Source: a virus
UHGV virus genome: UHGV-0286028
DNA: 24,559 nucleotides
Reading direction: 5' to 3' (one strand)
Below are positions 136-15,026 of this stretch, piece by piece; the stretch's first letter is position 1; each line of letters starts with the position of its first letter. Made by a program: the position numbers and the translations under genes. The notes beneath the pieces are model-generated. The model was given only the letters and a program-made list of their open reading frames with translations. It was not told where the DNA came from and did not search any database.

Positions 136-150
136 TTACCTTAAAGGTAT
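136..150. promoter_or_regulatory. Operator-like palindrome TTACC-TTAAA-GGTAT upstream of int (one mismatch to TTACC-N5-GGTAA)
   Basis: Matches the 15-bp inverted repeat found at the other operon starts in this window; lies about 45 bp upstream of the int start. Confidence 0.45.
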
Positions 151-1637: not shown

Positions 1638-2288
1638 TCATGCAGCACGCTCCCGCCCCTGGTTGTCTGTTGGTGACAGCGGAGCATTGCTGAATGCATT
1701 TGTTAATCCGCCAATATCCAACGCGTATCCAGGGTGTAGTTGCACTGCCGGGTCTTCGCACTGATTACCCCAAACATCGAAGCCATGAGACGTCTGGCGG
1801 GCGAACAGTTCAATGCGAGAAACATCGCCTAATAATTGCACAAGTTTTTCACGAACGATATCTGGCTTTCTTGAATGCTCAAGCCGCGGTGCGGTAAATG
1901 ACTGAACGATCCCTGCATTAATGCGCGTAGGTAGTTTTCCCTTTACCGCAAACAGGCAATCTTCACTATTGGCGCGAGTCATGTGTCCCATACCCATAAC
2001 CAGTTTATCTGGTTGTCGACTACCACATTTTATCCACGTGAAGCCCTTCATCGTCATCAGACGGAATCCCCAGGCTTCAACAACTTTTAGTGCTTCGAGT
2101 GGTTGTGTTGGCACCCACCACATGGCCAACAGACAGTTTTCATCGGCCAAATCCCACACAGGAAGGCGGCAGATATCCAGCACACTCATAACCGGATATT
2201 TAAAACCGGCACCGCGATTACCATCTGCGGCTTTGTCCCGGTATACCCAGGGTGGATCTGCATAGATTAGTGTGTATTTCTTAGTCAT
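1638..2288 (-). CDS. MT-A70 family DNA N6-adenine methyltransferase (orphan, phage Dam-like)
   Basis: ATG at 2288 (MTKKYTLIYADPPW...); DPPW catalytic motif; ATG overlaps the TAA stop of the upstream small ORF (ATGACTAA), indicating translational coupling. The longer ORF-track start at 2300 is a GTG. Confidence 0.8.
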   Translation of the reverse strand: MTKKYTLIYADPPWVYRDKAADGNRGAGFKYPVMSVLDICRLPVWDLADENCLLAMWWVPTQPLEALKVVEAWGFRLMTMKGFTWIKCGSRQPDKLVMGMGHMTRANSEDCLFAVKGKLPTRINAGIVQSFTAPRLEHSRKPDIVREKLVQLLGDVSRIELFARQTSHGFDVWGNQCEDPAVQLHPGYALDIGGLTNAFSNAPLSPTDNQGRERAA

Positions 2289-2580
2289 AAACCACCCCAC
2301 AACATCCTATGCCGCTATAGTCGCCACGGCGAAGGCCGTTACCTTTTGTGATACATTGGTCCCTGCGAACCGCGATCCTTGCACGTTCAACATCACCAGA
2401 AGCAACATCCATACACTGAAGCCAAAGGTGAGCGGCAATGCGGAATTGCCCTTTTTTCTCTCTTTCAATCGCGCGTTTTTCGATCTCTATCGCCGCAGGA
2501 GTAACGGCGACAATCTTTGACGGACTGCGCATTGAAACCTTATTCATGTGATATTTTTCAAGTCGGCTTAACTTTCTCAC
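2281..2580 (-). CDS. Hypothetical small protein translationally coupled to the methyltransferase
   Basis: 99-aa ORF (GTG at 2580 preceded by GAGGG; alternative ATG at 2547); stop overlaps the methyltransferase start. No recognisable motif. Confidence 0.45.
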   Translation of the reverse strand: MRKLSRLEKYHMNKVSMRSPSKIVAVTPAAIEIEKRAIEREKKGQFRIAAHLWLQCMDVASGDVERARIAVRRDQCITKGNGLRRGDYSGIGCCGVVYD

Positions 2581-2689: not shown

Positions 2690-2938
2690 TCATGCAGCGT
2701 TGCTCACGGGACGATATACACGTTGCTGAACAGGAGGTTTTTTACCCTGGAACTCTGCCGGGCTTGCTGCCTGACGTTCATCAAGCCAACGCTCAACTTC
2801 GTCACGGTTCCATGCGCAGCGTTTGTCAGTGATATACCAGCGTTTAGGAAATTCCCCTGCGCGCTCCATACGGTCGATAGTGCTCCATGACAGTGGCACC
2901 ACCGCCAGGAGTTCCTTCTTACCTAATGCACCTTTCAT
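2690..2938 (-). CDS. AlpA-family HTH DNA-binding protein (putative excisionase / prophage regulator)
   Basis: 82 aa; KKELLAVVPLSWSTIDRMERAGEFPKRWYI matches the AlpA/Xis-type winged-helix pattern; AGAGAGG SD upstream of ATG 2938; position between recombination genes and int. Confidence 0.75.
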   Translation of the reverse strand: MKGALGKKELLAVVPLSWSTIDRMERAGEFPKRWYITDKRCAWNRDEVERWLDERQAASPAEFQGKKPPVQQRVYRPVSNAA

Positions 2939-5217: not shown

Positions 5218-5232
5218 TTACCGTTGAGGTAA
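5218..5232. promoter_or_regulatory. Operator palindrome TTACC-GTTGA-GGTAA (leftward-promoter region, site 1)
   Basis: Perfect 5+5 inverted repeat with 5-bp spacer; between the repressor terminator and the leftward operon. Confidence 0.6.
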
Positions 5233-5279: not shown

Positions 5280-5294
5280 TTACCCGTTAGGTAA
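5280..5294. promoter_or_regulatory. Operator palindrome TTACC-CGTTA-GGTAA (leftward-promoter region, site 2)
   Basis: Perfect inverted repeat, 62 bp centre-to-centre from site 1. Confidence 0.6.
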
Positions 5295-5351: not shown

Positions 5352-5936
5352 TTATTGTTTGTTTTTTTCGTTCTGGTTGATGACAAATTCAATGTAACTT
5401 TCGATCTTTGCCTTCTCTGTTTCAGGTAACAATGCGTAGCGCGAGCGGTCATAGTTGATAGTTGCAGGGTCATGCGGATGAATCAGTAGTTCATATCCGT
5501 GACGCCCGAATGCAGATGCAACATTCTCCAGGGTGGAAATGGAAACGCTGACCTCATTGTTTAACAGGCGGCTTATTGTCACCTGGGCGACGCCGGATGC
5601 GCGGTGAAGTTTTCCCTGAGTTGAAAGGTCGCGGCTTTCACTCATCCAGCGTTCCAGGTTGTGAGCTGCCAGCTGACCAATGTCGCTTGGGCCGACAGGC
5701 TGAAAACCTTCCTGAGAAAGCGAGCGATCGATATCAAGCCAGTTACGGGGTTTATTGGCGGCAGCTTCAATTTTTCGCGCAACCTGGTCGCCGATAACCT
5801 TCTTGCCAAGAGCCCAGCGGTTTACCAGATTTGCCTGAGTTCCAAGTTTTTCTGCCATCCGCGTCTGAACACCATTGAATTCACGGTCGATCAAGTCGTT
5901 GAGATTTTGCCTGCGGACGTCCTGGATACTTTTCAT
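5352..5936 (-). CDS. CI-like immunity repressor with two HTH (Cro/C1-type) domains and no peptidase domain
   Basis: 194 aa; N-terminal HTH pattern (TRMAEKLGTQANLVNRWALGKK) and a second HTH-like segment (GVAQVTISRLLNNEVSVSISTLENVASAFG); divergent from a Cro-like gene across a 154-bp region with three palindromic sites; no S24 Ala-Gly/Ser-Lys motifs seen. Confidence 0.6.
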   Translation of the reverse strand: MKSIQDVRRQNLNDLIDREFNGVQTRMAEKLGTQANLVNRWALGKKVIGDQVARKIEAAANKPRNWLDIDRSLSQEGFQPVGPSDIGQLAAHNLERWMSESRDLSTQGKLHRASGVAQVTISRLLNNEVSVSISTLENVASAFGRHGYELLIHPHDPATINYDRSRYALLPETEKAKIESYIEFVINQNEKNKQ

Positions 5937-5991: not shown

Positions 5992-6054
5992 TTACCCAAC
6001 AGGTAAATGCACCTCATAGGTAACTATCCTTGATTTTTGTTACCTTATGGGTGA
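5992..6054. promoter_or_regulatory. Tripartite operator cluster between repressor and cro-like genes (5992-6006, 6009-6023, 6040-6054)
   Basis: TTACC-CAACA-GGTAA (perfect), GCACC-TCATA-GGTAA (degenerate left half), TTACC-TTATG-GGTGA (one mismatch); spacing 17 and 31 bp, reminiscent of an OR1-3 arrangement. Confidence 0.65.
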
Positions 6055-6090
6055 ATATTTATTATCTGAAATAAATATCAGGCAATAGCT

Positions 6091-6321: not shown

Positions 6322-6343
6322 TATCCAGCTACAACCCTCTGTA

Positions 6344-6365
6344 GACCGCCACCCGGCGGTCTTTT
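6344..6365 (+). terminator. Rho-independent terminator after the cro-like gene (tR1-like position)
   Basis: Stem GACCGCC (6344-6350) / GGCGGTC (6355-6361), loop ACCC, then TTTT. Confidence 0.65.
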
Positions 6366-6376
6366 CATATCTATTC

Positions 6377-6391
6377 GTACCTCAAAGGTAA
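6377..6391. promoter_or_regulatory. Operator-like palindrome GTACC-TCAAA-GGTAA just downstream of the post-cro terminator
   Basis: One mismatch to TTACC-N5-GGTAA; 12 bp after the terminator T-run. Confidence 0.45.
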
Positions 6392-6469: not shown

Positions 6470-6682
6470 TTGAAGATAGTAACCAGAATGGAGGCCGCAA
6501 AAGCCGGGTTAAATCGCTATTTCACAGGAAAGCGGTGCCGTCACGGCCATCTCTCTGAAAGGTATGTTCTGAACGGAACATGTGTTGAATGTGCAATGAA
6601 TAGCGCCAACCGCCATCGTAATGAATTTGCTTGTGCACTAAAGAGTGCAAGAGGGGAAACCTATGGCAAGCAGCTGGATTAA
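6470..6682 (+). CDS. Small Cys/His-rich (zinc-ribbon-like) protein
   Basis: 70 aa from a TTG start preceded by AAGGGG; C-x-H-G-H ... C-x-x-C spacing (KRCRHGH ... GTCVECA); 3' end overlaps the start of the O-like gene by 20 nt. Confidence 0.4.
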   Translation: MKIVTRMEAAKAGLNRYFTGKRCRHGHLSERYVLNGTCVECAMNSANRHRNEFACALKSARGETYGKQLD

Positions 6683-7487
6683 GGTTGAAGTTATCACTCC
6701 TGATAAACCTGAAATTTTTCAGATAGCAGAAATTCTGGGTATTGATCCAGATGCTGTTCTTGGAAAGCTGGTTCGTATATGGGCATGGGCTGACCAGCAA
6801 ACAATAGACGGTAACGCTGGCAGCGTTACAAAAGGAGTACTTGATAGACTCGCTTTTATTACAGGATTTGCTGACGCCCTCATTAGCGTCGGATGGCTTG
6901 CTTATCATGACGGCAAACTAATTCTTCCAAACTTTGAGCGACATAATGGAGAATCATCGAAAAAACGTGCACTTACGAATAGAAGAGTGGCAGAGCATCG
7001 AAAACGAGTAACGCAAAAAGTAACGCCAACAGCGTTACAAAAGGAGTTACCAGAGGAAGAGGAAGATATATATAAAACCCCACACATAGCGCACGTGCGC
7101 GAGGGTGCTCCGACCAGTGAAGCGAACGGTATGCCGTTGCAGGTGGCTGAACCTGAATTTCTGGATGGCCTGAGTGAACCCATCGGGAAATTTCCGATGA
7201 CCGATGGCTGGCATCCGTCGCCGGATTTTCGACGGCGTGCTGCGCTGTGGGGAACGGTCCTGCCGGAACCGGAATTTACACCTGCTGAACTTGCTGCATT
7301 CCGGGATTACTGGATGGCTGAGGGCAAAGTGTTCACGCAGGTTCAGTGGGAACAAAAATTCGCCAGGCACGTAAATCATATCAGGGGAAAATCAAAAAAC
7401 GCCGGGAAAAGCGATGAGCTTGACTGGAATAACACTGACTGGATAGAAGGGGTGTGGGATGAAATCAACTCCAGAACTTCTCAATGA
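6663..7487 (+). CDS. Replication initiation protein (lambda O-like role; replisome-organiser N-domain, DnaT-like C-terminal region)
   Basis: ATG 6663 with GAGGGG SD; directly precedes the lambda-P-like helicase loader; C-terminal W-rich segment (FRDYWMAEGKVFTQVQWEQKFARHV). Confidence 0.55.
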   Translation: MASSWIKVEVITPDKPEIFQIAEILGIDPDAVLGKLVRIWAWADQQTIDGNAGSVTKGVLDRLAFITGFADALISVGWLAYHDGKLILPNFERHNGESSKKRALTNRRVAEHRKRVTQKVTPTALQKELPEEEEDIYKTPHIAHVREGAPTSEANGMPLQVAEPEFLDGLSEPIGKFPMTDGWHPSPDFRRRAALWGTVLPEPEFTPAELAAFRDYWMAEGKVFTQVQWEQKFARHVNHIRGKSKNAGKSDELDWNNTDWIEGVWDEINSRTSQ

Positions 7488-8235
7488 GTACGATCGCTTA
7501 CGTGAGCATGGTGTTGCTGTGCATGAAGAGCGGCGTGACAGCAATGGCAAAAAGGAGCAGGTTGCTAGAATTTTCAATGAACTATTTGTCCAGTTACAGG
7601 CTGCATTTCCTGCAAGCGTTTCGACCATAAGGGAGCAGAACAAACTTAATGAATTCCGTAAGCAATGGATGCTTGCGTTTCTGGAGAATGGGATCACAAC
7701 AATGGAACAGGTTAACGCTGGTATGCGCCACGCCCGCGCCAGTGAATCTCCGTTCTGGCCGTCGCCAGGGCAATTCATCAAGTGGTGCAAAGACAGCAAG
7801 ATGGTTCTTGGCGTCACCATTGACGATGTGATGGCGGAGTTTCACCGGTACAGCAAGGAAAAAAGTTTATATCCTGGTGGTCCCGAAAGATTCCCGTGGC
7901 GACATCCGGTTATGTACTGGGTCGTATGTGATACCCGCCGTGCAATGTATCAGCGCCAGCTTAGCGAGATTGAGGTTGAGAAACACGCGCGCAGGCTGCT
8001 CGATGATTGGGCGAAAAAGGTGGCTTCCGGACAGCAGATACCCGATCCGGTGATCAGCATACAGGCAAAGCCAGAGCCCATGAGTACACCTCCGGACACA
8101 GGGAGAGACGTTTACCATCCACCAGGGCGAAGTTTCGGGTGCATGCCTAACGCCGCCACCCTAGGGGGAATAACACCGGCGCAGTGGCTGATGGAGGAAT
8201 ACAGGCGGGGAAAGGCGGCAGGATTTATCAAGTAA
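7459..8235 (+). CDS. Replication protein P-like DnaB helicase loader
   Basis: 258 aa; strong by-eye similarity to lambda P (ours QLQAAFPAS ... RKQWMLAFLENGITTMEQVNAGMRHAR ... PSPGQF vs lambda ATFPAS ... RRQWVLAFRENGITTMEQVNAGMRVAR ... PSPGQF); overlaps the O-like stop by 29 nt. Confidence 0.85.
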   Translation: MKSTPELLNEYDRLREHGVAVHEERRDSNGKKEQVARIFNELFVQLQAAFPASVSTIREQNKLNEFRKQWMLAFLENGITTMEQVNAGMRHARASESPFWPSPGQFIKWCKDSKMVLGVTIDDVMAEFHRYSKEKSLYPGGPERFPWRHPVMYWVVCDTRRAMYQRQLSEIEVEKHARRLLDDWAKKVASGQQIPDPVISIQAKPEPMSTPPDTGRDVYHPPGRSFGCMPNAATLGGITPAQWLMEEYRRGKAAGFIK

Positions 8236-8272: not shown

Positions 8273-8287
8273 TTACCTGACGGGTAA
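8273..8287. promoter_or_regulatory. Operator palindrome TTACC-TGACG-GGTAA
   Basis: Perfect inverted repeat in the P / DUF1064 intergenic region. Confidence 0.6.
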
Positions 8288-8335
8288 TAAAATATTCTAA
8301 AATCTATTGATTTCGTGTCTTATGTGGTTTTTAAT

Positions 8336-8350
8336 TACCTTGGAGGTAAA
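8336..8350. promoter_or_regulatory. Operator palindrome TTACC-TTGGA-GGTAA overlapping the Shine-Dalgarno of the next gene
   Basis: Perfect inverted repeat; the GGAGG inside it is the RBS for the ATG at 8353. Confidence 0.6.
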
Positions 8351-8352
8351 TC

Positions 8353-8697
8353 ATGAAAAAACAGATACAGGCTCTTGGTCGACTCAAAACAGGCCAGATG
8401 AACAAAACAGAATCTGCGTATTGCCAGCACCTTGAGCAGCGTAAACGTGCAGGGGAAATCGCCTGGTATCGATTCGAGGGTATCAAGCTGCGGTTAGCTG
8501 ACAACACGTTCTATACGCCCGATTTTGCTGTGATGCTCGCCACCGGCGAGATGGAACTGCACGAAGTGAAAGGTTTCTGGACCGACGACGCCAGGGTGAA
8601 AACCAAAGTCGCCGCAGATCAGTATCCGTTCCGAATCATCGGGGTAACGGTTAAACCAAAGAAAGCAGGTGGTGGCTGGAACATCGAAGAGTTCTGA
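8353..8697 (+). CDS. DUF1064-like protein, predicted PD-(D/E)XK nuclease fold
   Basis: 114 aa; YTPDFAV ... ELHEVKG fits a D ... E-x-K nuclease motif; position equivalent to the nin-region recombination/resolvase genes of lambdoid phages. Confidence 0.55.
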   Translation: MKKQIQALGRLKTGQMNKTESAYCQHLEQRKRAGEIAWYRFEGIKLRLADNTFYTPDFAVMLATGEMELHEVKGFWTDDARVKTKVAADQYPFRIIGVTVKPKKAGGGWNIEEF

Positions 8698-8758
8698 ATC
8701 GACGATCTTTTTAGTTATCAATGTAATCAATAAGTTATGTGGATAATCGAGGGTAAAG

Positions 8759-9253
8759 ATGGAAAGTAATATCAAAGGGTTAGTTGCCGCCGGGCATGAG
8801 ATGGCTTCGGAACTGAAAGCAGAATGTGGTGCCGTTGATATGCGCAGTGTGGCAAAGCTGATCAGCGATTTGGCAACGCAACTGGAAGTGCAACTGGCGC
8901 GTGCTAATGCGCTGGCAGCGGAGAATGCGGCGCTGAAGGCTGCGCACCCTCAACCATTCGGACCTGAGATGATGAAGGCTCTTGATGCGTATGAGAAGTA
9001 TCAGGATGAAGTGCCGGAGACTGGGATGCTCAATGCATTTTTCATCTTGCGCGACAGTATCCGTGTTGACACCCCAGCCACCGATGCTTTCCTGTCTGAA
9101 GTACGGGCGCAGGGGGTGGATATGGCTCGTAACGCGATGATTGATTTTGTTGATGGTGAAGTTGGGCCAAACAAGAACGTTCCGGGGCTGATTAGAGGCG
9201 CAGAGATATGCGTAAGTATTGCTGAACAGCTTCGCAAAGGAGGCAACCAGTGA
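8759..9253 (+). CDS. Hypothetical protein (Ala-rich, probable coiled coil in N-terminal half)
   Basis: 164 aa, GAGGG SD, no recognisable motif. Confidence 0.5.
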   Translation: MESNIKGLVAAGHEMASELKAECGAVDMRSVAKLISDLATQLEVQLARANALAAENAALKAAHPQPFGPEMMKALDAYEKYQDEVPETGMLNAFFILRDSIRVDTPATDAFLSEVRAQGVDMARNAMIDFVDGEVGPNKNVPGLIRGAEICVSIAEQLRKGGNQ

Positions 9254-9816
9254 GCAAGATTAATTATCAGGCACTGCGTGAGGCGGCAGAGAAAGCCGGT
9301 GAAGATAAGTGGCAGGCTAAAAAAATAAATGGTGATTTTTTCGTTATTCGTCACGGTAGTTATACAAGACAGCATGGATACACATCGTATCAACCCATTG
9401 CTGAGATTGATTGTAAGCCAGTCCGTGATTTTGTTGCCAAGGCTAATCCGGCAACCGTGCTGGCGCTTCTGGATGAACGGGAAAGAAACCAGCAATACAT
9501 CAAACGCCGCGACCAGGAGAACGAGGATATTGCGCTAACGGTAGGGAAGCTGCGCGTTGAGCTTGAGGAGACAAAATCAAAACTCAACGAGCAGCGCGAG
9601 TATTACGAGGGAGTTATCTCTGATGGGTGCAAGCGTATTGCTGAACTGGAAGCGCGGGAAGTTCAATTACCGACTCGCTACGACCTTCGATATGGACACC
9701 CGATAAATGAAGGTGAGCGACAAGTCATGATACCTAAAGAAAATGGCAGTTGGCTTTACCTGATTGACCTAGAACACGCATTACGCGTCGCTGGCATTCG
9801 CATCAAAGGAGAGTGA
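9250..9816 (+). CDS. Ead/Ea22-like protein
   Basis: GTG start overlapping the upstream stop; N-terminus MSKINYQALREAAEKAGEDKWQ is the characteristic Ea22-family start; central coiled-coil region. Confidence 0.7.
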   Translation: MSKINYQALREAAEKAGEDKWQAKKINGDFFVIRHGSYTRQHGYTSYQPIAEIDCKPVRDFVAKANPATVLALLDERERNQQYIKRRDQENEDIALTVGKLRVELEETKSKLNEQREYYEGVISDGCKRIAELEAREVQLPTRYDLRYGHPINEGERQVMIPKENGSWLYLIDLEHALRVAGIRIKGE

Positions 9817-9817
9817 G

Positions 9818-10006
9818 ATGAACGGACAAATATCAATTATTCGCCCTGGCGCTTGTGACGAAGAGATAAGGCTGATTATCCGCCTTGCGATGGGTAGAAC
9901 AATAACTGCTCTCATTACTCCAGAAAATCTCGCATTAGCATTAACCGGAAAGTCAGACCTGCCAGTAGAGCTAAAGCTGCGAAATGTTGAGATTAAGGTG
10001 AAATAG
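9818..10006 (+). CDS. Small hypothetical protein
   Basis: 62-aa ORF in tight series with its neighbours. Confidence 0.35.
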   Translation: MNGQISIIRPGACDEEIRLIIRLAMGRTITALITPENLALALTGKSDLPVELKLRNVEIKVK

Positions 10007-10008
10007 CT

Positions 10009-10815
10009 ATGACCACTATTACCAAAGAGCGACTACTGACAATCAAGCAGTGGCGCGAAACATACGGACCTGGTAGCAACGTTGTACTGCCAGCAGAAGA
10101 AGCGGAAGAACTGGCACGAATTGCTCTGGCATCACTGGAGGCAGAGCCAGTGGCAAAAATTATAGCTCACTACCCATTAGGAATTGACGTAGGCAAACAA
10201 AAGTTCGTACAGGCCATTGGAGAGCTTCCTGACTTTGGAGGATATCTATTCGCCGCTCCACCTGTGCCGGTAACACAGGCTAATGTCGCGCAAGCAATTG
10301 AAAATCTCAAGCAGAAGTTAGTGGAATGCAATCGCTATAACTACTGCGCAGATGCAGTTAAGGGCGTAGAGGATGCCTGCCGTGCTGTTAGCTATAGCCA
10401 AGCCGACAATCAACCAGCATCTGGCAACCAGGCTGCCGAATCCAATCGCGGTAATGAGTGGACTGGCAATCCTGATATTGATAACGCCATCATCATGCTC
10501 GACCGCATAGATACGCTGGAAAATTGCGATGATGACCGTATTGAGGCTGTTAAGGCTGTTTTGCGTAGACTGGCTGGCAACTATCCGGTAACTCCGGATG
10601 GTTGGATAAGCTGTAGTGAGCGAATGCCGAATACCAAAACAGCCGTTCTTGTTGCCGTGGAGTTTGACAGGAAAGGTGACTGGCGAATGAAATGGGCTAC
10701 TTACATCCCGGGGCATCCTGACGCTAATGATGGATGGATAATTCCTGGTGCGTCGTGGAAACCGTCACACTGGATGCCGCTACCGGAACCACCGCAGGAG
10801 GTTAACCGTGGCTAA
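10009..10815 (+). CDS. DUF551 domain-containing protein
   Basis: 268 aa; C-terminal W/P-rich segment (WISCSERMP ... WIIPGASWKPSHWMPLPEPP) typical of the DUF551 phage domain. Confidence 0.6.
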   Translation: MTTITKERLLTIKQWRETYGPGSNVVLPAEEAEELARIALASLEAEPVAKIIAHYPLGIDVGKQKFVQAIGELPDFGGYLFAAPPVPVTQANVAQAIENLKQKLVECNRYNYCADAVKGVEDACRAVSYSQADNQPASGNQAAESNRGNEWTGNPDIDNAIIMLDRIDTLENCDDDRIEAVKAVLRRLAGNYPVTPDGWISCSERMPNTKTAVLVAVEFDRKGDWRMKWATYIPGHPDANDGWIIPGASWKPSHWMPLPEPPQEVNRG

Positions 10816-11089
10816 CCTGCAACTTGCCGTTAGATGTGAATACTTCGACGCCATGATTCGCGGAGAGAAAACGGAAGAGTATCGCCTGTGTAATGACTAC
10901 TGGAATAAACGCCTCGTTAATCGTAAGTATGACCGCCTGATTATCACAAAGGGATATCCGAAGCGCGACGATTCCAGCCGCAGAATTGATGTTCCGTATG
11001 ACGGATATGAAATCAAGACAATCACACATCCACACTTCGGTGATAAACCGGTAAAGGTGTTCGCGATAAAGGTGAATATTGATGGCTAA
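10808..11089 (+). CDS. ASCH-domain protein (PUA-like fold)
   Basis: GTG at 10808 with AGGAGG SD 6 nt upstream; IRGEKTEEYR matches the ASCH G-x-K-x-x-E-x-R signature; 93 aa. Confidence 0.6.
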   Translation: MANLQLAVRCEYFDAMIRGEKTEEYRLCNDYWNKRLVNRKYDRLIITKGYPKRDDSSRRIDVPYDGYEIKTITHPHFGDKPVKVFAIKVNIDG

Positions 11090-11420
11090 ATCAGCAGCAG
11101 AGCGCAAAGCCGCTCAGAGAGCCAGACAAGCTGAATCCGGTGTGCGTAAGCTGGAAATTGTGCTTGATGCTCAGGAAATTGAAATGCTGGAGCGTAACTG
11201 TGCCACGCGTCGCCCCGGGCGTGCGCCTTACGAATTTGGTGAGTATATAGCGTTACTGATCCGCCAGGATGATGCACGCGTGCGCGGGCGTATAAAATCG
11301 ATCAGCAGAAAACGTTGCGGTAAGTGCGGCGAGAGCGTTCCTGTGAATTCATGCCCGTGTAATGGTGACTCGCAATGCTGGGTGACCAAAGGCTGGCATG
11401 AAACGAAATTAATAGTGTGA
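11082..11420 (+). CDS. Hypothetical protein with C-terminal Cys cluster (zinc-ribbon-like)
   Basis: ATG 11082; N-terminal basic segment; C-terminus CGKCGESVPVNSCPCNGDSQC. Confidence 0.5.
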   Translation: MAKSAAERKAAQRARQAESGVRKLEIVLDAQEIEMLERNCATRRPGRAPYEFGEYIALLIRQDDARVRGRIKSISRKRCGKCGESVPVNSCPCNGDSQCWVTKGWHETKLIV

Positions 11421-11650
11421 CATGTCACGAAGGTGTTATGCCAAAAATACGCTACGACCTTGAAGATATGAGAGATAACTCAGCAAATTTTCCGAAAGAG
11501 GTTAAATTTCTCATGCATAAGTATGGTTGCGCCAAGAGGGATATAGTTATCGACAGTCAGCACCCTTGCGGCGAGGATGTAATTTTCATTCGCGGTAAAT
11601 GGGAAGGGTATCTTGACGAGAGTTTTTACGATGAATTTGATGGACTTTGA
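11417..11650 (+). CDS. Small hypothetical protein, last gene before the late-operon terminator
   Basis: 77-aa ORF with ATGA-type overlap to the upstream gene. Confidence 0.4.
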   Translation: MTCHEGVMPKIRYDLEDMRDNSANFPKEVKFLMHKYGCAKRDIVIDSQHPCGEDVIFIRGKWEGYLDESFYDEFDGL

Positions 11651-11655
11651 ATACT

Positions 11656-11681
11656 GCCGCCAACTATGGCGGCTTTATTTT
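11656..11681 (+). terminator. Rho-independent terminator between the early/accessory block and the terminase genes
   Basis: Perfect stem GCCGCCA (11656-11662) / TGGCGGC (11667-11673), loop ACTA, then TTTATTTT. Confidence 0.75.
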
Positions 11682-11692
11682 GCATGGTACTA

Positions 11693-11725
11693 TTACCACA
11701 ACGGTAACTATTACCACGGTGGTTA
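11693..11725. promoter_or_regulatory. Twin operator palindromes directly upstream of, and overlapping, the terminase small-subunit start
   Basis: TTACC-ACAAC-GGTAA (11693-11707, perfect) and TTACC-ACGGT-GGTTA (11711-11725, one mismatch); the second ends at the first base of the ATG at 11725. Confidence 0.55.
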
Positions 11726-12321
11726 TGATGCCTGCTGAACCTAAAACCTATAAACGCAAATCAACGCAATTTAAGCCACTAACAGCAATGCAGGAGGCTT
11801 ATTGCCAGTCATACATCAAAACGCCTGAAAACCAGACTCAGGCAGCGATTAACGCAGGATTCTCCCCAAATACAGCGGCAGTTAAAGCCAGTGTCATGAT
11901 GCGCGATGAACGCATTCAAAAACGGATTGCCGAGTTGATGGAGGAGCGCAACAAACGAATGCGCGTCAGTGCTGATTACGTTCTCATGCGCCTGGTGGAG
12001 ATCGACCAGATGGACGTGATCGACATCCTCAACGACGATGGGAGCCTTAAACCAATCCGTGAGTGGCCGAAAATCTGGCGCACTACGCTTAGTGGCTTTG
12101 ATCTGTCATCGACCATCATGAACATGAACGAGGATTCGATAGAGACAATCCTCAAAAAAATTAAATGGCCTGACAAGGTGAAGAACCTCGAACTGATTGG
12201 TAAGCACGTCGACGTCAACGCATTCAAAGAACGCCTGGATGTTAATGTGAATGTGACAATTGCTGATCGCATAGCGGCAGCCAGGAAGAGACTGAAAGAA
12301 CGTCAGGATGGCAATCAGTGA
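11725..12321 (+). CDS. Terminase small subunit
   Basis: ATG at 11725 (MMPAEPKTYKRK...); LTAMQEAYCQSYIKTPENQTQAAINAGFSPNTAAVKASVMMRDERIQKRI matches the small-terminase HTH region; stop overlaps the large-subunit start. The ORF-track start 11647 is a TTG inside the terminator. Confidence 0.7.
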   Translation: MMPAEPKTYKRKSTQFKPLTAMQEAYCQSYIKTPENQTQAAINAGFSPNTAAVKASVMMRDERIQKRIAELMEERNKRMRVSADYVLMRLVEIDQMDVIDILNDDGSLKPIREWPKIWRTTLSGFDLSSTIMNMNEDSIETILKKIKWPDKVKNLELIGKHVDVNAFKERLDVNVNVTIADRIAAARKRLKERQDGNQ

Positions 12322-13793
12322 CAGATACAGCGTTATCTCCTGAAGAGCAGTTAATCGAGGATATTGCAGGGTTCACTCACGATCCGCTTGGCTATGCCCT
12401 CTATGCGTTCCCGTGGGGGGAAGAGGGTACTGAACTGGCATATGCTACCGGCCCACGTCAGTGGCAGGCTGATGCGTTCCGAGAGATACGTGATCACCTG
12501 CAGAATCCAGAGACGCGCTATCAGCCGCTTATGCTGGCACGCGCTTCTGGTCACGGTATTGGTAAATCCGCATTCATCTCAATGCTGATCAACTGGGGCA
12601 TGTCCACTTGCGAGGATTGTAAGGTCGTGGTGACCGCCAACACCGACAACCAGCTACGAACGAAGACCTGGCCGGAAATTATCAAGTGGTCGAACCTTGC
12701 TATCACGAAAGACTGGTTTACCTGTACCGCTACCGCGATGTACAGCAATGACCCTGGGCACGACAAGCGGTGGCGTGCTGACGCAATACCCTGGTCTGAG
12801 CACAACACTGAGGCGTTCGCCGGACTACACAACGAGCGCAAACGCATCATCGTGGTGTTTGATGAAGCGTCGAACATTGCGGATCTGGTGTGGGAAGTTG
12901 CCGAAGGTGCGCTAACGGACGAAGACACTGAGATTATCTGGGTGGCGTTCGGAAACCCGACGCGTAATACCGGACGTTTCCGTGAATGTTTCCGCAAGTA
13001 TAAACACCGCTGGAAAACTGCGCAGATTGACAGTCGGACGGTGGAAGGTACCAACAAACAGCAGTTGCAGAAATGGGTTGATGACTACGGGGAAGACAGC
13101 GACTTCGTTAAAATCCGTGTGCGTGGCATATTCCCTGATGCATCTGAATTGCAGTTTATCCCTACCGGTCTTACTGACGAGGCAATGAAACGGGTGGTAA
13201 CCGCTGCGCAGGTTGCACATGCTCCGGTGATAATCGGCGTTGACCCGGCATACTCCGGCGTTGATGACGCTGTGATATACCTGCGGCAGGGGCTACACAG
13301 TAAGGTGCTGTGGACTGGCAACAAGACTACCGACGATCTGATTATGGCGAAGCGTATCGCTGACTTTGAAGACCAGTATCAGGCTGACGCGGTGTTCATC
13401 GACTTCGGTTACGGAACCGGTTTGAAGTCAATCGGTGACGGCTGGGGTCGTACATGGCAACTTGTTCCGTTCGGTGGCGCGTCTACTGACCCGCAGATGC
13501 TTAACAAGCGTGGGGAGATGTTCAACTCATGCAAGACATGGCTGAGGCTCGGCGGCATGCTGGATGACCGGGAAACAGCGGACGACCTGTCGACGGCAGA
13601 GTACAAAGTTCGCGTGGACGGTAAAATCGTTATCGAACCGAAGGAAGATATCAAAGAGCGACTTGGGCGTTCGCCGGGTAAAGGCGATGCGCTACTGCTG
13701 ACGTTTGCTTTCCCTGTGTCGAAGCGTCTGCGAATTCCTGGGCAGCAGAACCAGCAAGGCAAGGCCATCACAGATTATGACCCGTATGCTTAA
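12318..13793 (+). CDS. Terminase large subunit
   Basis: 491 aa; N-terminal ATPase region with P-loop-like GHGIGKSAF and acidic VVFDEAS (Walker B-like); C-terminal nuclease-like region (IGVDPAYSG ... FIDFGYG); position after the small subunit. Confidence 0.88.
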   Translation: MTDTALSPEEQLIEDIAGFTHDPLGYALYAFPWGEEGTELAYATGPRQWQADAFREIRDHLQNPETRYQPLMLARASGHGIGKSAFISMLINWGMSTCEDCKVVVTANTDNQLRTKTWPEIIKWSNLAITKDWFTCTATAMYSNDPGHDKRWRADAIPWSEHNTEAFAGLHNERKRIIVVFDEASNIADLVWEVAEGALTDEDTEIIWVAFGNPTRNTGRFRECFRKYKHRWKTAQIDSRTVEGTNKQQLQKWVDDYGEDSDFVKIRVRGIFPDASELQFIPTGLTDEAMKRVVTAAQVAHAPVIIGVDPAYSGVDDAVIYLRQGLHSKVLWTGNKTTDDLIMAKRIADFEDQYQADAVFIDFGYGTGLKSIGDGWGRTWQLVPFGGASTDPQMLNKRGEMFNSCKTWLRLGGMLDDRETADDLSTAEYKVRVDGKIVIEPKEDIKERLGRSPGKGDALLLTFAFPVSKRLRIPGQQNQQGKAITDYDPYA

Positions 13794-13841
13794 TCCGCTG
13801 GTGGGGATAATGTCGTTGATATCCTCTGATGAGGATAAAAT

Positions 13842-13872
13842 AAAGCCCGCGCATTTGGCGGGCTTTATTTTT
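13842..13872. terminator. Bidirectional rho-independent terminator after terL
   Basis: AAAGCCCGC / GCGGGCTTT stem with 7-nt loop, flanked by A/T runs on both sides; serves terL (+) and the converging minus-strand gene. Confidence 0.75.
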
Positions 13873-13878
13873 AAATAA

Positions 13879-14226
13879 TTATTTCTTGATAATATTTCCA
13901 GACATTGTGCTGGCGTTTCCACCAACAGTTTCGCAGATTACATCTCCAGACATGGTGTTTACATTTCCCAATACATTGGAACAATGGACATCACCAGACA
14001 TAGTTTTCACATAATGTGCATCACCGCTTACAGTCACTGATCCATTTTCAATCTCAACACCTTCCACGCTTCCATTAATTGTTACGTTAATCTGTCCGTC
14101 AAGATTGCTATTTTTTTCGACACCATCAACGATCACTTTTCCATTGTTAATCGTAATATGATGACCAGTGAAGTCTTCTCCGTTGACGCTAACGCTAGCA
14201 CCACGTACGTTATTGATTTTAATCAT
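13879..14226 (-). CDS. Beta-solenoid repeat protein (bactofilin-like), moron
   Basis: 115 aa; internal repeats (TMSGDV x2, TMSGNI; INVTINGSVEGVEIENGSVTVSGD); GAGGA SD 9 nt upstream of the ATG; flanked by its own terminators; opposite strand to the phage operons. Confidence 0.55.
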   Translation of the reverse strand: MIKINNVRGASVSVNGEDFTGHHITINNGKVIVDGVEKNSNLDGQINVTINGSVEGVEIENGSVTVSGDAHYVKTMSGDVHCSNVLGNVNTMSGDVICETVGGNASTMSGNIIKK

Positions 14227-14522: not shown

Positions 14523-14599
14523 TGGCGTGGCATGCAGGATTCGAACCTGCGACCAACCGCTTAGAAGACGGTTGCTCTGTCCAACTGAGCTAATGCCAC
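14523..14599 (-). tRNA. tRNA-Arg (anticodon UCU), phage-borne, argU-like
   Basis: 77 nt; I folded the reverse complement by hand: acceptor GTGGCAT/ATGCCAC, D-arm GCTC-AGTTGGACA-GAGC, anticodon stem ACCGT/GCGGT with loop CTTCTAA (U33, UCU, A37), T-arm GCAGG-TTCGAAT-CCTGC, discriminator G, encoded CCA. Confidence 0.9.
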
Positions 14600-14921: not shown

Positions 14922-14936
14922 TTACCTGAAAGGTAA
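14922..14936. promoter_or_regulatory. Operator palindrome TTACC-TGAAA-GGTAA upstream of the structural operon
   Basis: Perfect inverted repeat between the tRNA-leader region and the first structural gene. Confidence 0.6.
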
Positions 14937-15026
14937 TAATTCGTGCGTTAAATGTCAACTATCTACGATAAATAAATCATATGTGGTTAAATTGGTAATA
15001 ATTTAATTGCGTACGGAGTCATTGAT

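Follow-up and report, generated by a model that had tools for sequence, protein, structure and literature searches.

Late gene control in phage lambda involves the Q protein, PR', qut and tR', after which come the lysis genes. The C1 repressor of P1 has many operators around the genome, and the late promoters of that phage are activated by Lpa and not directly gated by operators. In mycobacteriophage L5 the stoperators recognized by gp71 are asymmetric and orientation-dependent and are located inside transcription units.

Closest to the locus considered here are the systems of Salmonella phage epsilon15 and of SPC32H. The epsilon15 GenBank record (AY150271.2) lists a stem_loop at 39646-39672, homologous to the hairpin that we describe below, as a 'rho-independent terminator', and a site at 12-27, ahead of terS, as 'protein_bind: repressor', along with seven other such sites; one of these, annotated 'repressor' at 2931-2947, is the homologue of 14922-14936 in our DNA. 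According to a passage in PMC9638917 that discusses Kim et al. 2016, the SPC32H repressor (Rep) sits as a tetramer on palindromic DNA and is disabled by an antirepressor. Repressor overexpression in phage ZX5 reduces holin/endolysin mRNA by 99.97-99.99% (PMC9782041). The combination of a terminator with repressor sites is therefore already known, a homologous feature being annotated in epsilon15 and the repressor family having been structurally characterised in SPC32H.

The DNA that we have analysed, referred to below as the window, is a stretch of 24,559 nucleotides from virus genome UHGV-0286028. By megablast, positions 9000-14000 are 96% identical to phiV10, TL-2011b, O157 typing phages, vB_EcoP_ZX5 and others, and ~81% identical to epsilon15, and the segment 11400-11800 is found at 95% identity or better in 502 of 5426 complete E. 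coli genomes. The gene order is that annotated for TL-2011b and epsilon15: int at the left end, early-left genes on the reverse strand (MT-A70, PerC-like, AlpA-like, RecT and exonuclease), then the repressor, a cro-like gene, DnaT/P-type replication genes and accessory genes, followed by terS, terL and the portal, head and tail genes. On the basis of this identity and the matching gene order we assign the window to a Uetakevirus (epsilon15/phiV10-like) prophage, which is not lambdoid; at 11656-11725 its early genes give way to the packaging genes in the manner usual for an epsilon15/phiV10-type prophage of E. coli. An earlier note on this DNA had taken the lambdoid phages as its frame of reference. 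That frame was the wrong one, since a terminase without preceding Q or lysis genes is the normal Uetakevirus order and the lambdoid expectation (Q, then the lysis genes, ahead of the terminase) is inapplicable to such a prophage. Beyond its value for correct annotation the boundary matters little.

Between the replication genes (6645-8235) and terS there are eight accessory ORFs: DUF1064/resolvase-like, phrog_492, Ead/Ea22, phrog_1222, DUF551, phrog_625, phrog_536 ('transcriptional regulator') and phrog_1541. Searches against Pfam, PHROGs and NCBIfam detected no Q-type antiterminator, holin, endolysin or spanin among ORFs 8353-11650, and no Q-family gene is annotated in epsilon15, Tyrion or SPN1S. 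The earlier note had stated that neither a Q-like antiterminator nor a lysis cassette lies between replication and packaging genes, which these family searches bear out, and that the lysis genes must be elsewhere, which also holds, as in relatives they are found where the prophage ends on the far right. In E. coli 90-3040 the cassette comes after the tailspike and acyltransferase genes, beside yfgI, and the holin, endolysin and spanin genes of epsilon15, Tyrion and SPN1S likewise follow the tailspike/O-antigen genes. Further upstream, inside the DnaT-domain gene (6645-7487), 19-bp hairpin-forming repeats, GTAACGCTG...CAGCGTTAC, at 6811-6829, 7020-7038 and 7081-7099 look like origin iterons. 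The features on which the remainder of this analysis draws are collected in Table 1.

Table 1. Features of the locus and of its surroundings (positions are those of the window except where a relative is named)
Feature	Position	Strand	Remarks
Operator-like copy TTACCTTAAAGGTAT	136-150	.	1 mismatch; upstream of integrase gene
PerC-like small regulator	2281-2580	-	E = 6e-7; early-left operon
AlpA-like small regulator	2690-2938	-	E = 3e-5; early-left operon
Predicted operator pair	5218-5232 + 5280-5294	.	At leftward PL-like promoter; downstream of rep terminator
Prophage repressor Rep, 194 aa	5352-5936	-	Match to PDB 5D50
Predicted operator pair	5992-6006 + 6040-6054	.	Between rep and cro; second overlaps PR-like promoter
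Predicted operator copy	6377-6391	.	1 mismatch; just past cro terminator
Predicted operator pair	8273-8287 + 8335-8349	.	Past replication genes; TTGATT-17-TTTAAT in between
113-aa phrog_536 protein	11079-11420		RHH-like N-terminus, Cys-rich C-terminus; just upstream
Last accessory ORF, 70 aa, phrog_1541	11438-11650	+	Insertion relative to TL-2011b and phiV10
Predicted intrinsic (rho-independent) terminator of early-right transcript	11656-11681	+	Hairpin, U-rich tail, conservation
Candidate extended -10, TGGTACTAT (TGn + TACTAT)	11685-11693	+	Sequence, PWM, conservation
Predicted operator O1, TTACCACAACGGTAA (TTACC-ACAAC-GGTAA)	11693-11707	.	Perfect dyad
Predicted operator O2, TTACCACGGTGGTTA (TTACC-ACGGT-GGTTA)	11711-11725	.	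Dyad, 1 mismatch
terS, small terminase subunit, 197 aa	11728-12321	+	Terminase_2
terL, large terminase subunit	12318-13793	+	Last gene of two-gene unit
A/U-flanked hairpin closing terS-terL	13837-13871	.	-22.4 kcal/mol, z = -4.6
115-aa ORF, phiV10p03-like	13879-14226	-	After terL
tRNA-Arg, anticodon TCT	14523-14599	-	Between terL and portal genes
Predicted operator copy	14922-14936	.	Intergenic, ahead of portal/head genes
GTGACATGTCAC in epsilon15 (L004)	2142, 19517, 39612
GTGACATGTCAC in L006	2174, 19662, 38653
GTGACATGTCAC in L005	2702, 20377
GTGACATGTCAC in L092	12697, 15252, 24674
GTGACATGTCAC in L011	8730
GTGACATGTCAC in L093	Two copies, ~70-100 nt ahead of terS -10

The hairpin at the end of the accessory block has a 7-bp stem, GCCGCCA/TGGCGGC (11656-11662 and 11667-11673), with six G-C pairs, a 4-nt loop (ACTA) and the tail TTTATTTT at 11674-11681 (UUUAUUUU as RNA), in which seven of the eight residues are U. 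The last accessory ORF is co-oriented with the hairpin and has its TGA stop at 11648-11650, 6 nt before the stem begins. The calculated folding energy of the RNA is -17 kcal/mol, to be compared with -8.5 +/- 2.2 for shuffled sequences (z = -3.96). There is no variation in the stem among 79 IMG/VR relatives, chosen as having an identical terS protein, and the terminator is kept in epsilon15, SPN1S and Tyrion, where an A->G change preserves a G-U pair. A G+C-rich hairpin followed immediately by a U-rich tract, placed after a stop codon and conserved, has the properties of an intrinsic terminator, and we conclude that 11656-11681 is most likely a strong one, predicted to end the early-right transcript. 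A search of 11000-12200 against Rfam returned no match to a known RNA element, even at E <= 1.

Downstream of the terminator are the two 15-bp dyads, O1 and O2, with centres 18 bp apart, that can also be read as a direct repeat, ACTATTACCAC x2. GGTGG (11718-11722), the Shine-Dalgarno sequence, falls within O2, and only 2 nt separate O2 from the terS ATG. Allowing at most one mismatch, TTACC-N5-GGTAA occurs 11 times in the window with 0.46 copies expected, a number reached in 0 of 100 shuffles, and all 11 copies are intergenic, at operon boundaries. In an unbiased count of perfect 5-Nk-5 palindromes the motif comes out on top in the window (7 copies), and it does so as well in a Klebsiella relative (10 copies) and in a Serratia prophage (7 copies). 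Among the 79 relatives one of the 20 half-site positions of O1 and O2 varies, in a single locus, whereas four of the 10 spacer positions vary repeatedly, as does the 3-nt linker. In distant phages the half-sites of O1 are kept around spacers ACAAC, AAAAC, ATAAC, TAAAA and AAGGA, and spacers differ likewise in epsilon15, Tyrion, Kp4865-1 and Serratia. Half-sites that stay fixed while spacers change are the pattern expected of a protein-binding dyad. Two further statements of the earlier note thus stand: that the accessory block runs straight into a canonical terminator, upheld by stem, tail and folding energy, and that twin palindromic sites precede terS, for which 'operators' is the right word. 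The dyads match the motif flanking the repressor gene.

A direct repeat placed directly 5' of terS might also be read as the pac recognition site of the adjacent small terminase, the more so as the GenBank records of epsilon15, phiV10, SPN1S and Tyrion start within ~100 bp of the ACTATTACCAC repeats. Such starts, however, are conventionally placed at terS and are no proof of physical ends, and the Serratia and Klebsiella relatives carry a single copy before terS. Moreover, a pac site would be unique, and the dyad recurs at nine other intergenic sites, including both flanks of the repressor gene. With the motif dispersed over 11 intergenic positions we have rejected this interpretation as very improbable.

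The preferred reading, in which the dyads are operators, is consistent with their distribution. Copies of the motif lie on both sides of the repressor gene and overlap the divergent early promoters there, and the cognate repressor is encoded in the same element, as expected of Rep operators of the epsilon15/SPC32H type. A promoter consensus scan located a PR-like element at 6037-6065 and a PL-like element at 5260-5232 (- strand), both overlapping dyads. The rep terminator is at 5331-5312 (- strand) and that of cro at 6343-6362, and the layout of a terminator followed by an operator is repeated downstream of rep, cro and the replication genes. In the last of these cases, 8273-8349, the likeness to terS extends to the details, with a hairpin, an operator, a -10 abutting an operator and then a Shine-Dalgarno sequence and ATG. 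Rep aligns over its full length with the SPC32H repressor (PDB 5D50; E = 4e-42, residues 1-190) and is the presumed ligand of O1/O2, which are expected to be operators for the prophage's own repressor. In every relative examined, namely epsilon15, SPN1S, Tyrion, Kp4865-1 (45% Rep identity) and the Serratia prophage (54% Rep identity), the dyad is the same and so offers no covariation of operator with repressor. Full-text literature searches on the genus Uetakevirus found no Rep binding or transcription-start data at the terS sites. A hint comes from ZX5, which is 96.6% identical here and in which the fall in mRNA cited above is consistent with Rep gating, direct and indirect control not being separated by that result. 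No Ant homologue was identified in the window; the 115-aa reverse-strand ORF after terL was considered as an antirepressor of the SPC32H type and rejected, as it has no match in the PDB, nor has it one in Pfam or NCBIfam.

Two observations on the dyads away from this junction may be added. The copy upstream of the integrase gene is ~45 nt before the integrase start and is positionally conserved in epsilon15, Tyrion, SPN1S and Kp4865-1, which suggests that Rep may also act at the int promoter. In addition, three of 80 IMG/VR loci (L057, L040 and L083) are without Rep within 10 kb. In L057 and L040 terS is identical and the twin operators are the same, yet there is neither Rep nor any other dyad in the 10 kb upstream, and in L057 this region encodes DnaC-like, DUF1627, QueH and DUF968-RusA proteins. 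L057 carries a different, longer early region, so that its immunity region is outside reach, and the two loci point to a probable mosaic exchange at or near the terS junction.

Between the terminator and O1 there is a candidate promoter element, TGGTACTAT, the final T of which also opens O1. TGn is directly 5' of a hexamer whose second and sixth bases are A and T, as in extended -10 elements, and a -35 hexamer is absent. The element outscores every other + strand candidate of 11640-11727 in a PWM scan. Its rank among all positions is the 99.6th percentile, a level at which ~190 window positions are equally good. Without a -35 and with a score of this rank the promoter call is weak if made from the sequence alone. 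The TG and the hexamer are, however, kept in phages of E. coli, Salmonella and Enterobacter and have equivalents in Klebsiella (TGGTATTAT) and Serratia (TGTTATGAT), five host genera in all, and this conservation strengthens the call of a putative promoter. Variation in the 79 relatives takes the form of changes at 'n' and of a C->T substitution giving TATTAT, an improved hexamer, with TG kept. The order terminator, TGnTAxxAT, operator, ATG is common to the Salmonella, Enterobacter and Serratia phages; in the Serratia prophage, the terS of which is divergent, it reads terminator, TGTTATGAT, an operator containing the Shine-Dalgarno sequence, and ATG. In Klebsiella Kp4865-1 the upstream gene and the terminator have been replaced by unrelated sequence, and TGGTATTAT and the operator remain. 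A -10 that ends on the first T of an operator is also seen at 8330-8349 (TTGATT-17-TTTAAT) and at PL. The predicted start of transcription is at ~11700, leaving a leader of 27 nt that contains GGTGG. Leader RNA structure sequestering the ribosome-binding site is no better than in shuffled sequences (z = -0.44).

One can ask whether a promoter is needed at all, as terS-terL could be transcribed by partial read-through of the terminator, with Rep at O1/O2 acting as an elongation roadblock in the lysogen. The operators, downstream of the terminator and over the leader and ribosome-binding site, are in a good position for such a role and the promoter-like element is weak, but we consider this improbable. 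The hairpin with its 7/8 U tail looks efficient, and no antiterminator was found in the window. TGnTAyTAT and the operator are conserved even where terminator and upstream gene have been replaced (Klebsiella), the element is improved to TGTTATGAT in Serratia, and the polymorphism in the 79 relatives spares TG and hexamer.

The reading that we favour, with a probability of roughly 65%, is that the terminator insulates the packaging genes and that terS-terL restarts from a weak extended -10 promoter gated by Rep. Transcripts arriving from the replication and accessory genes would be halted at 11656-11681, and transcription would restart ~27 nt 5' of terS at a weak extended -10 promoter for sigma-70 (11685-11693). 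O1 covers the predicted start site and O2 the leader and ribosome-binding site, and in the lysogen Rep would be expected on both, blocking RNA polymerase at the terS promoter as well as any polymerase that leaks through the terminator. When Rep is removed upon induction, for which SPC32H and ZX5 use an antirepressor, the terS promoter would become free, and the terminase genes would in this way be switched directly by the repressor with no Q-type antitermination cascade. The analysis shows the hairpin, the dyads and their genome-wide distribution, the homology of Rep and the conservation across five host genera, whereas we infer the binding of Rep at O1/O2 and an extended -10 promoter with a start near 11700. 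The earlier note had held that late transcription must be started or read through by a mechanism not visible in the window. This is not so: the repressor gene (5352-5936), matching operators and a conserved candidate extended -10 are all visible, so that most of the mechanism (repressor, operators and candidate promoter) is most likely there to be seen. A direct hold of Rep on the terminase genes would be of use in predicting inducibility and in engineering phiV10-type reporter phages.

Since the terminator-then-operator layout recurs, the phage looks as though it were built of insulated units, each with Rep dyads at its start. Simultaneous derepression of all of these would leave no distinction between early and late timing, which counts against simple Rep gating, and late elements that have no -35 could need an activator. 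A promoter of this kind at terS might thus depend on an early phage-encoded activator that provides late timing, Rep on O1/O2 being an additional lock. We regard this as possible, though distinctly less probable than gating by Rep, with which it overlaps in part. Candidates are the 113-aa protein encoded at 11079-11420 and the PerC-like protein (2281-2580, - strand). The lack of a -35 hexamer and the modest promoter score at terS fit the idea, as does the absence of a good -35 from the putative portal, tailspike and lysis promoters. In all relatives the final conserved gene ahead of terS is that of the phrog_536 'transcriptional regulator', and the early-left operon includes PerC-like and AlpA-like regulators, both of which are possible positive regulators of later genes. 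Set against this, no shared activator-type site was found at a fixed distance from the terS -10, and the Serratia element TGTTATGAT is a good extended -10 that should work unaided. The 113-aa protein has homologues, encoded away from the late genes, also in phages with Q-like antiterminators (ZF40, N15), and itself has no established fold, with no Pfam or NCBIfam family, no PDB match by sequence or profile, and an AlphaFold model (pLDDT 57.5) too poor for a fold search. The motif CATATrTGGTT was tried as an upstream element specific to late genes and rejected, being present also in the spacers of early promoters (Tyrion PL and the 8322 site). How promoters with no -35 achieve late timing without an antiterminator is of modest specialist interest.

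Turning to the genes that would be controlled, the 197-aa product of terS matches Pfam Terminase_2 with E = 1e-29, and its first 20 residues show conservation at the protein level in epsilon15. A 224-aa ORF starting at TTG 11647 was considered as terS and dismissed as an artefact that runs through the terminator, the real ATG being at 11728. In the phiV10 and SPN1S records terS is annotated from an upstream start (41-715 in L001, 1-669 in L006) and spans terminator and operators; the annotation should begin at 11728, unlike in those two records. The term 'late operon' used in the earlier note was also an overstatement, as terS and terL form a two-gene unit with a strong hairpin of its own (13837-13871), and the portal/head genes restart past a reverse-strand ORF, tRNA-Arg and another dyad. 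ZX5 has been reported with a single tRNA, with which the tRNA-Arg of the window agrees. On the reverse strand a conserved leftward promoter-like element, TTGACA-17-TACCTT, is found at 14922-14956, pointing to tRNA-Arg and the 115-aa ORF. Its -10 is inside the operator 14922-14936, which may for this reason govern the leftward unit and not the portal genes. The dyads of the portal, tailspike and lysis units are tens of bp upstream of the likely -10 and may serve divergent promoters. With the dyads so far from the -10 at the other late units, we claim direct control by Rep only for terS.

A further conserved element is the perfect 12-bp palindrome GTGACATGTCAC, at 11417-11428 in the window, where it overlaps the stop codon of the 113-aa phrog_536 gene. 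In all relatives examined it marks 3' ends of rightward operons: it occurs at the phrog_536 stop, downstream of terL and downstream of the final head/tail gene, and in several cases it immediately adjoins an intrinsic terminator. The distance from GTGACATGTCAC to the terS promoter ranges from 52 to ~430 nt, so that it is not an activator site of the fixed-distance type; it could be the site of a regulator that tunes termination or late timing. The phrog_1541 ORF sits between this palindrome and the terminator. Kp4865-1 has another small gene in its place, behind a LexA-box-like TACTGT-N8-ACAGTA (L092, ~12738-12757), and 11438-11650 looks like a hotspot for moron insertion. As a speculation, which we regard as doubtful, the whole Uetakevirus lytic programme might proceed without an antiterminator, from insulated operons with promoters of their own and a single Rep-tetramer gate, perhaps with the involvement of a second regulator acting through GTGACATGTCAC.

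Of the known systems the epsilon15 gp49/terS junction is the same in its parts, with a hairpin, TGnTACTAT, TTACC-N5-GGTAA, a second, degenerate dyad and the terS ATG. It differs in having ~80% nucleotide identity and, unlike the window, no 70-aa ORF insertion; of the two dyads only the first is annotated in the epsilon15 record, and no promoter is. The Rep/Ant pair of SPC32H (PDB 5D50/5D4Z) has in the window's Rep a full-length homologue of its repressor, and a tetramer on palindromic sites, as described in the passage cited above, fits the twin dyads 17-18 bp apart.

Lambda likewise has a terminator at the entry to its late genes. In the window, however, the terminator is upstream of the promoter-like element and not downstream, repressor operators follow, and there is no Q gene; in relatives the lysis genes occupy the opposite end of the late region. 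With this gene missing and the order being terminator, promoter-like element, operators and terS, the feature is outside the lambda Q/tR' class and is like any operator-gated promoter behind an insulating terminator. With C1 of P1 and gp71 of L5 it has in common a single immunity repressor with sites genome-wide, including outside the immunity region, whereas the sites in the window are symmetric dyads and are confined to the intergenic starts of operons.
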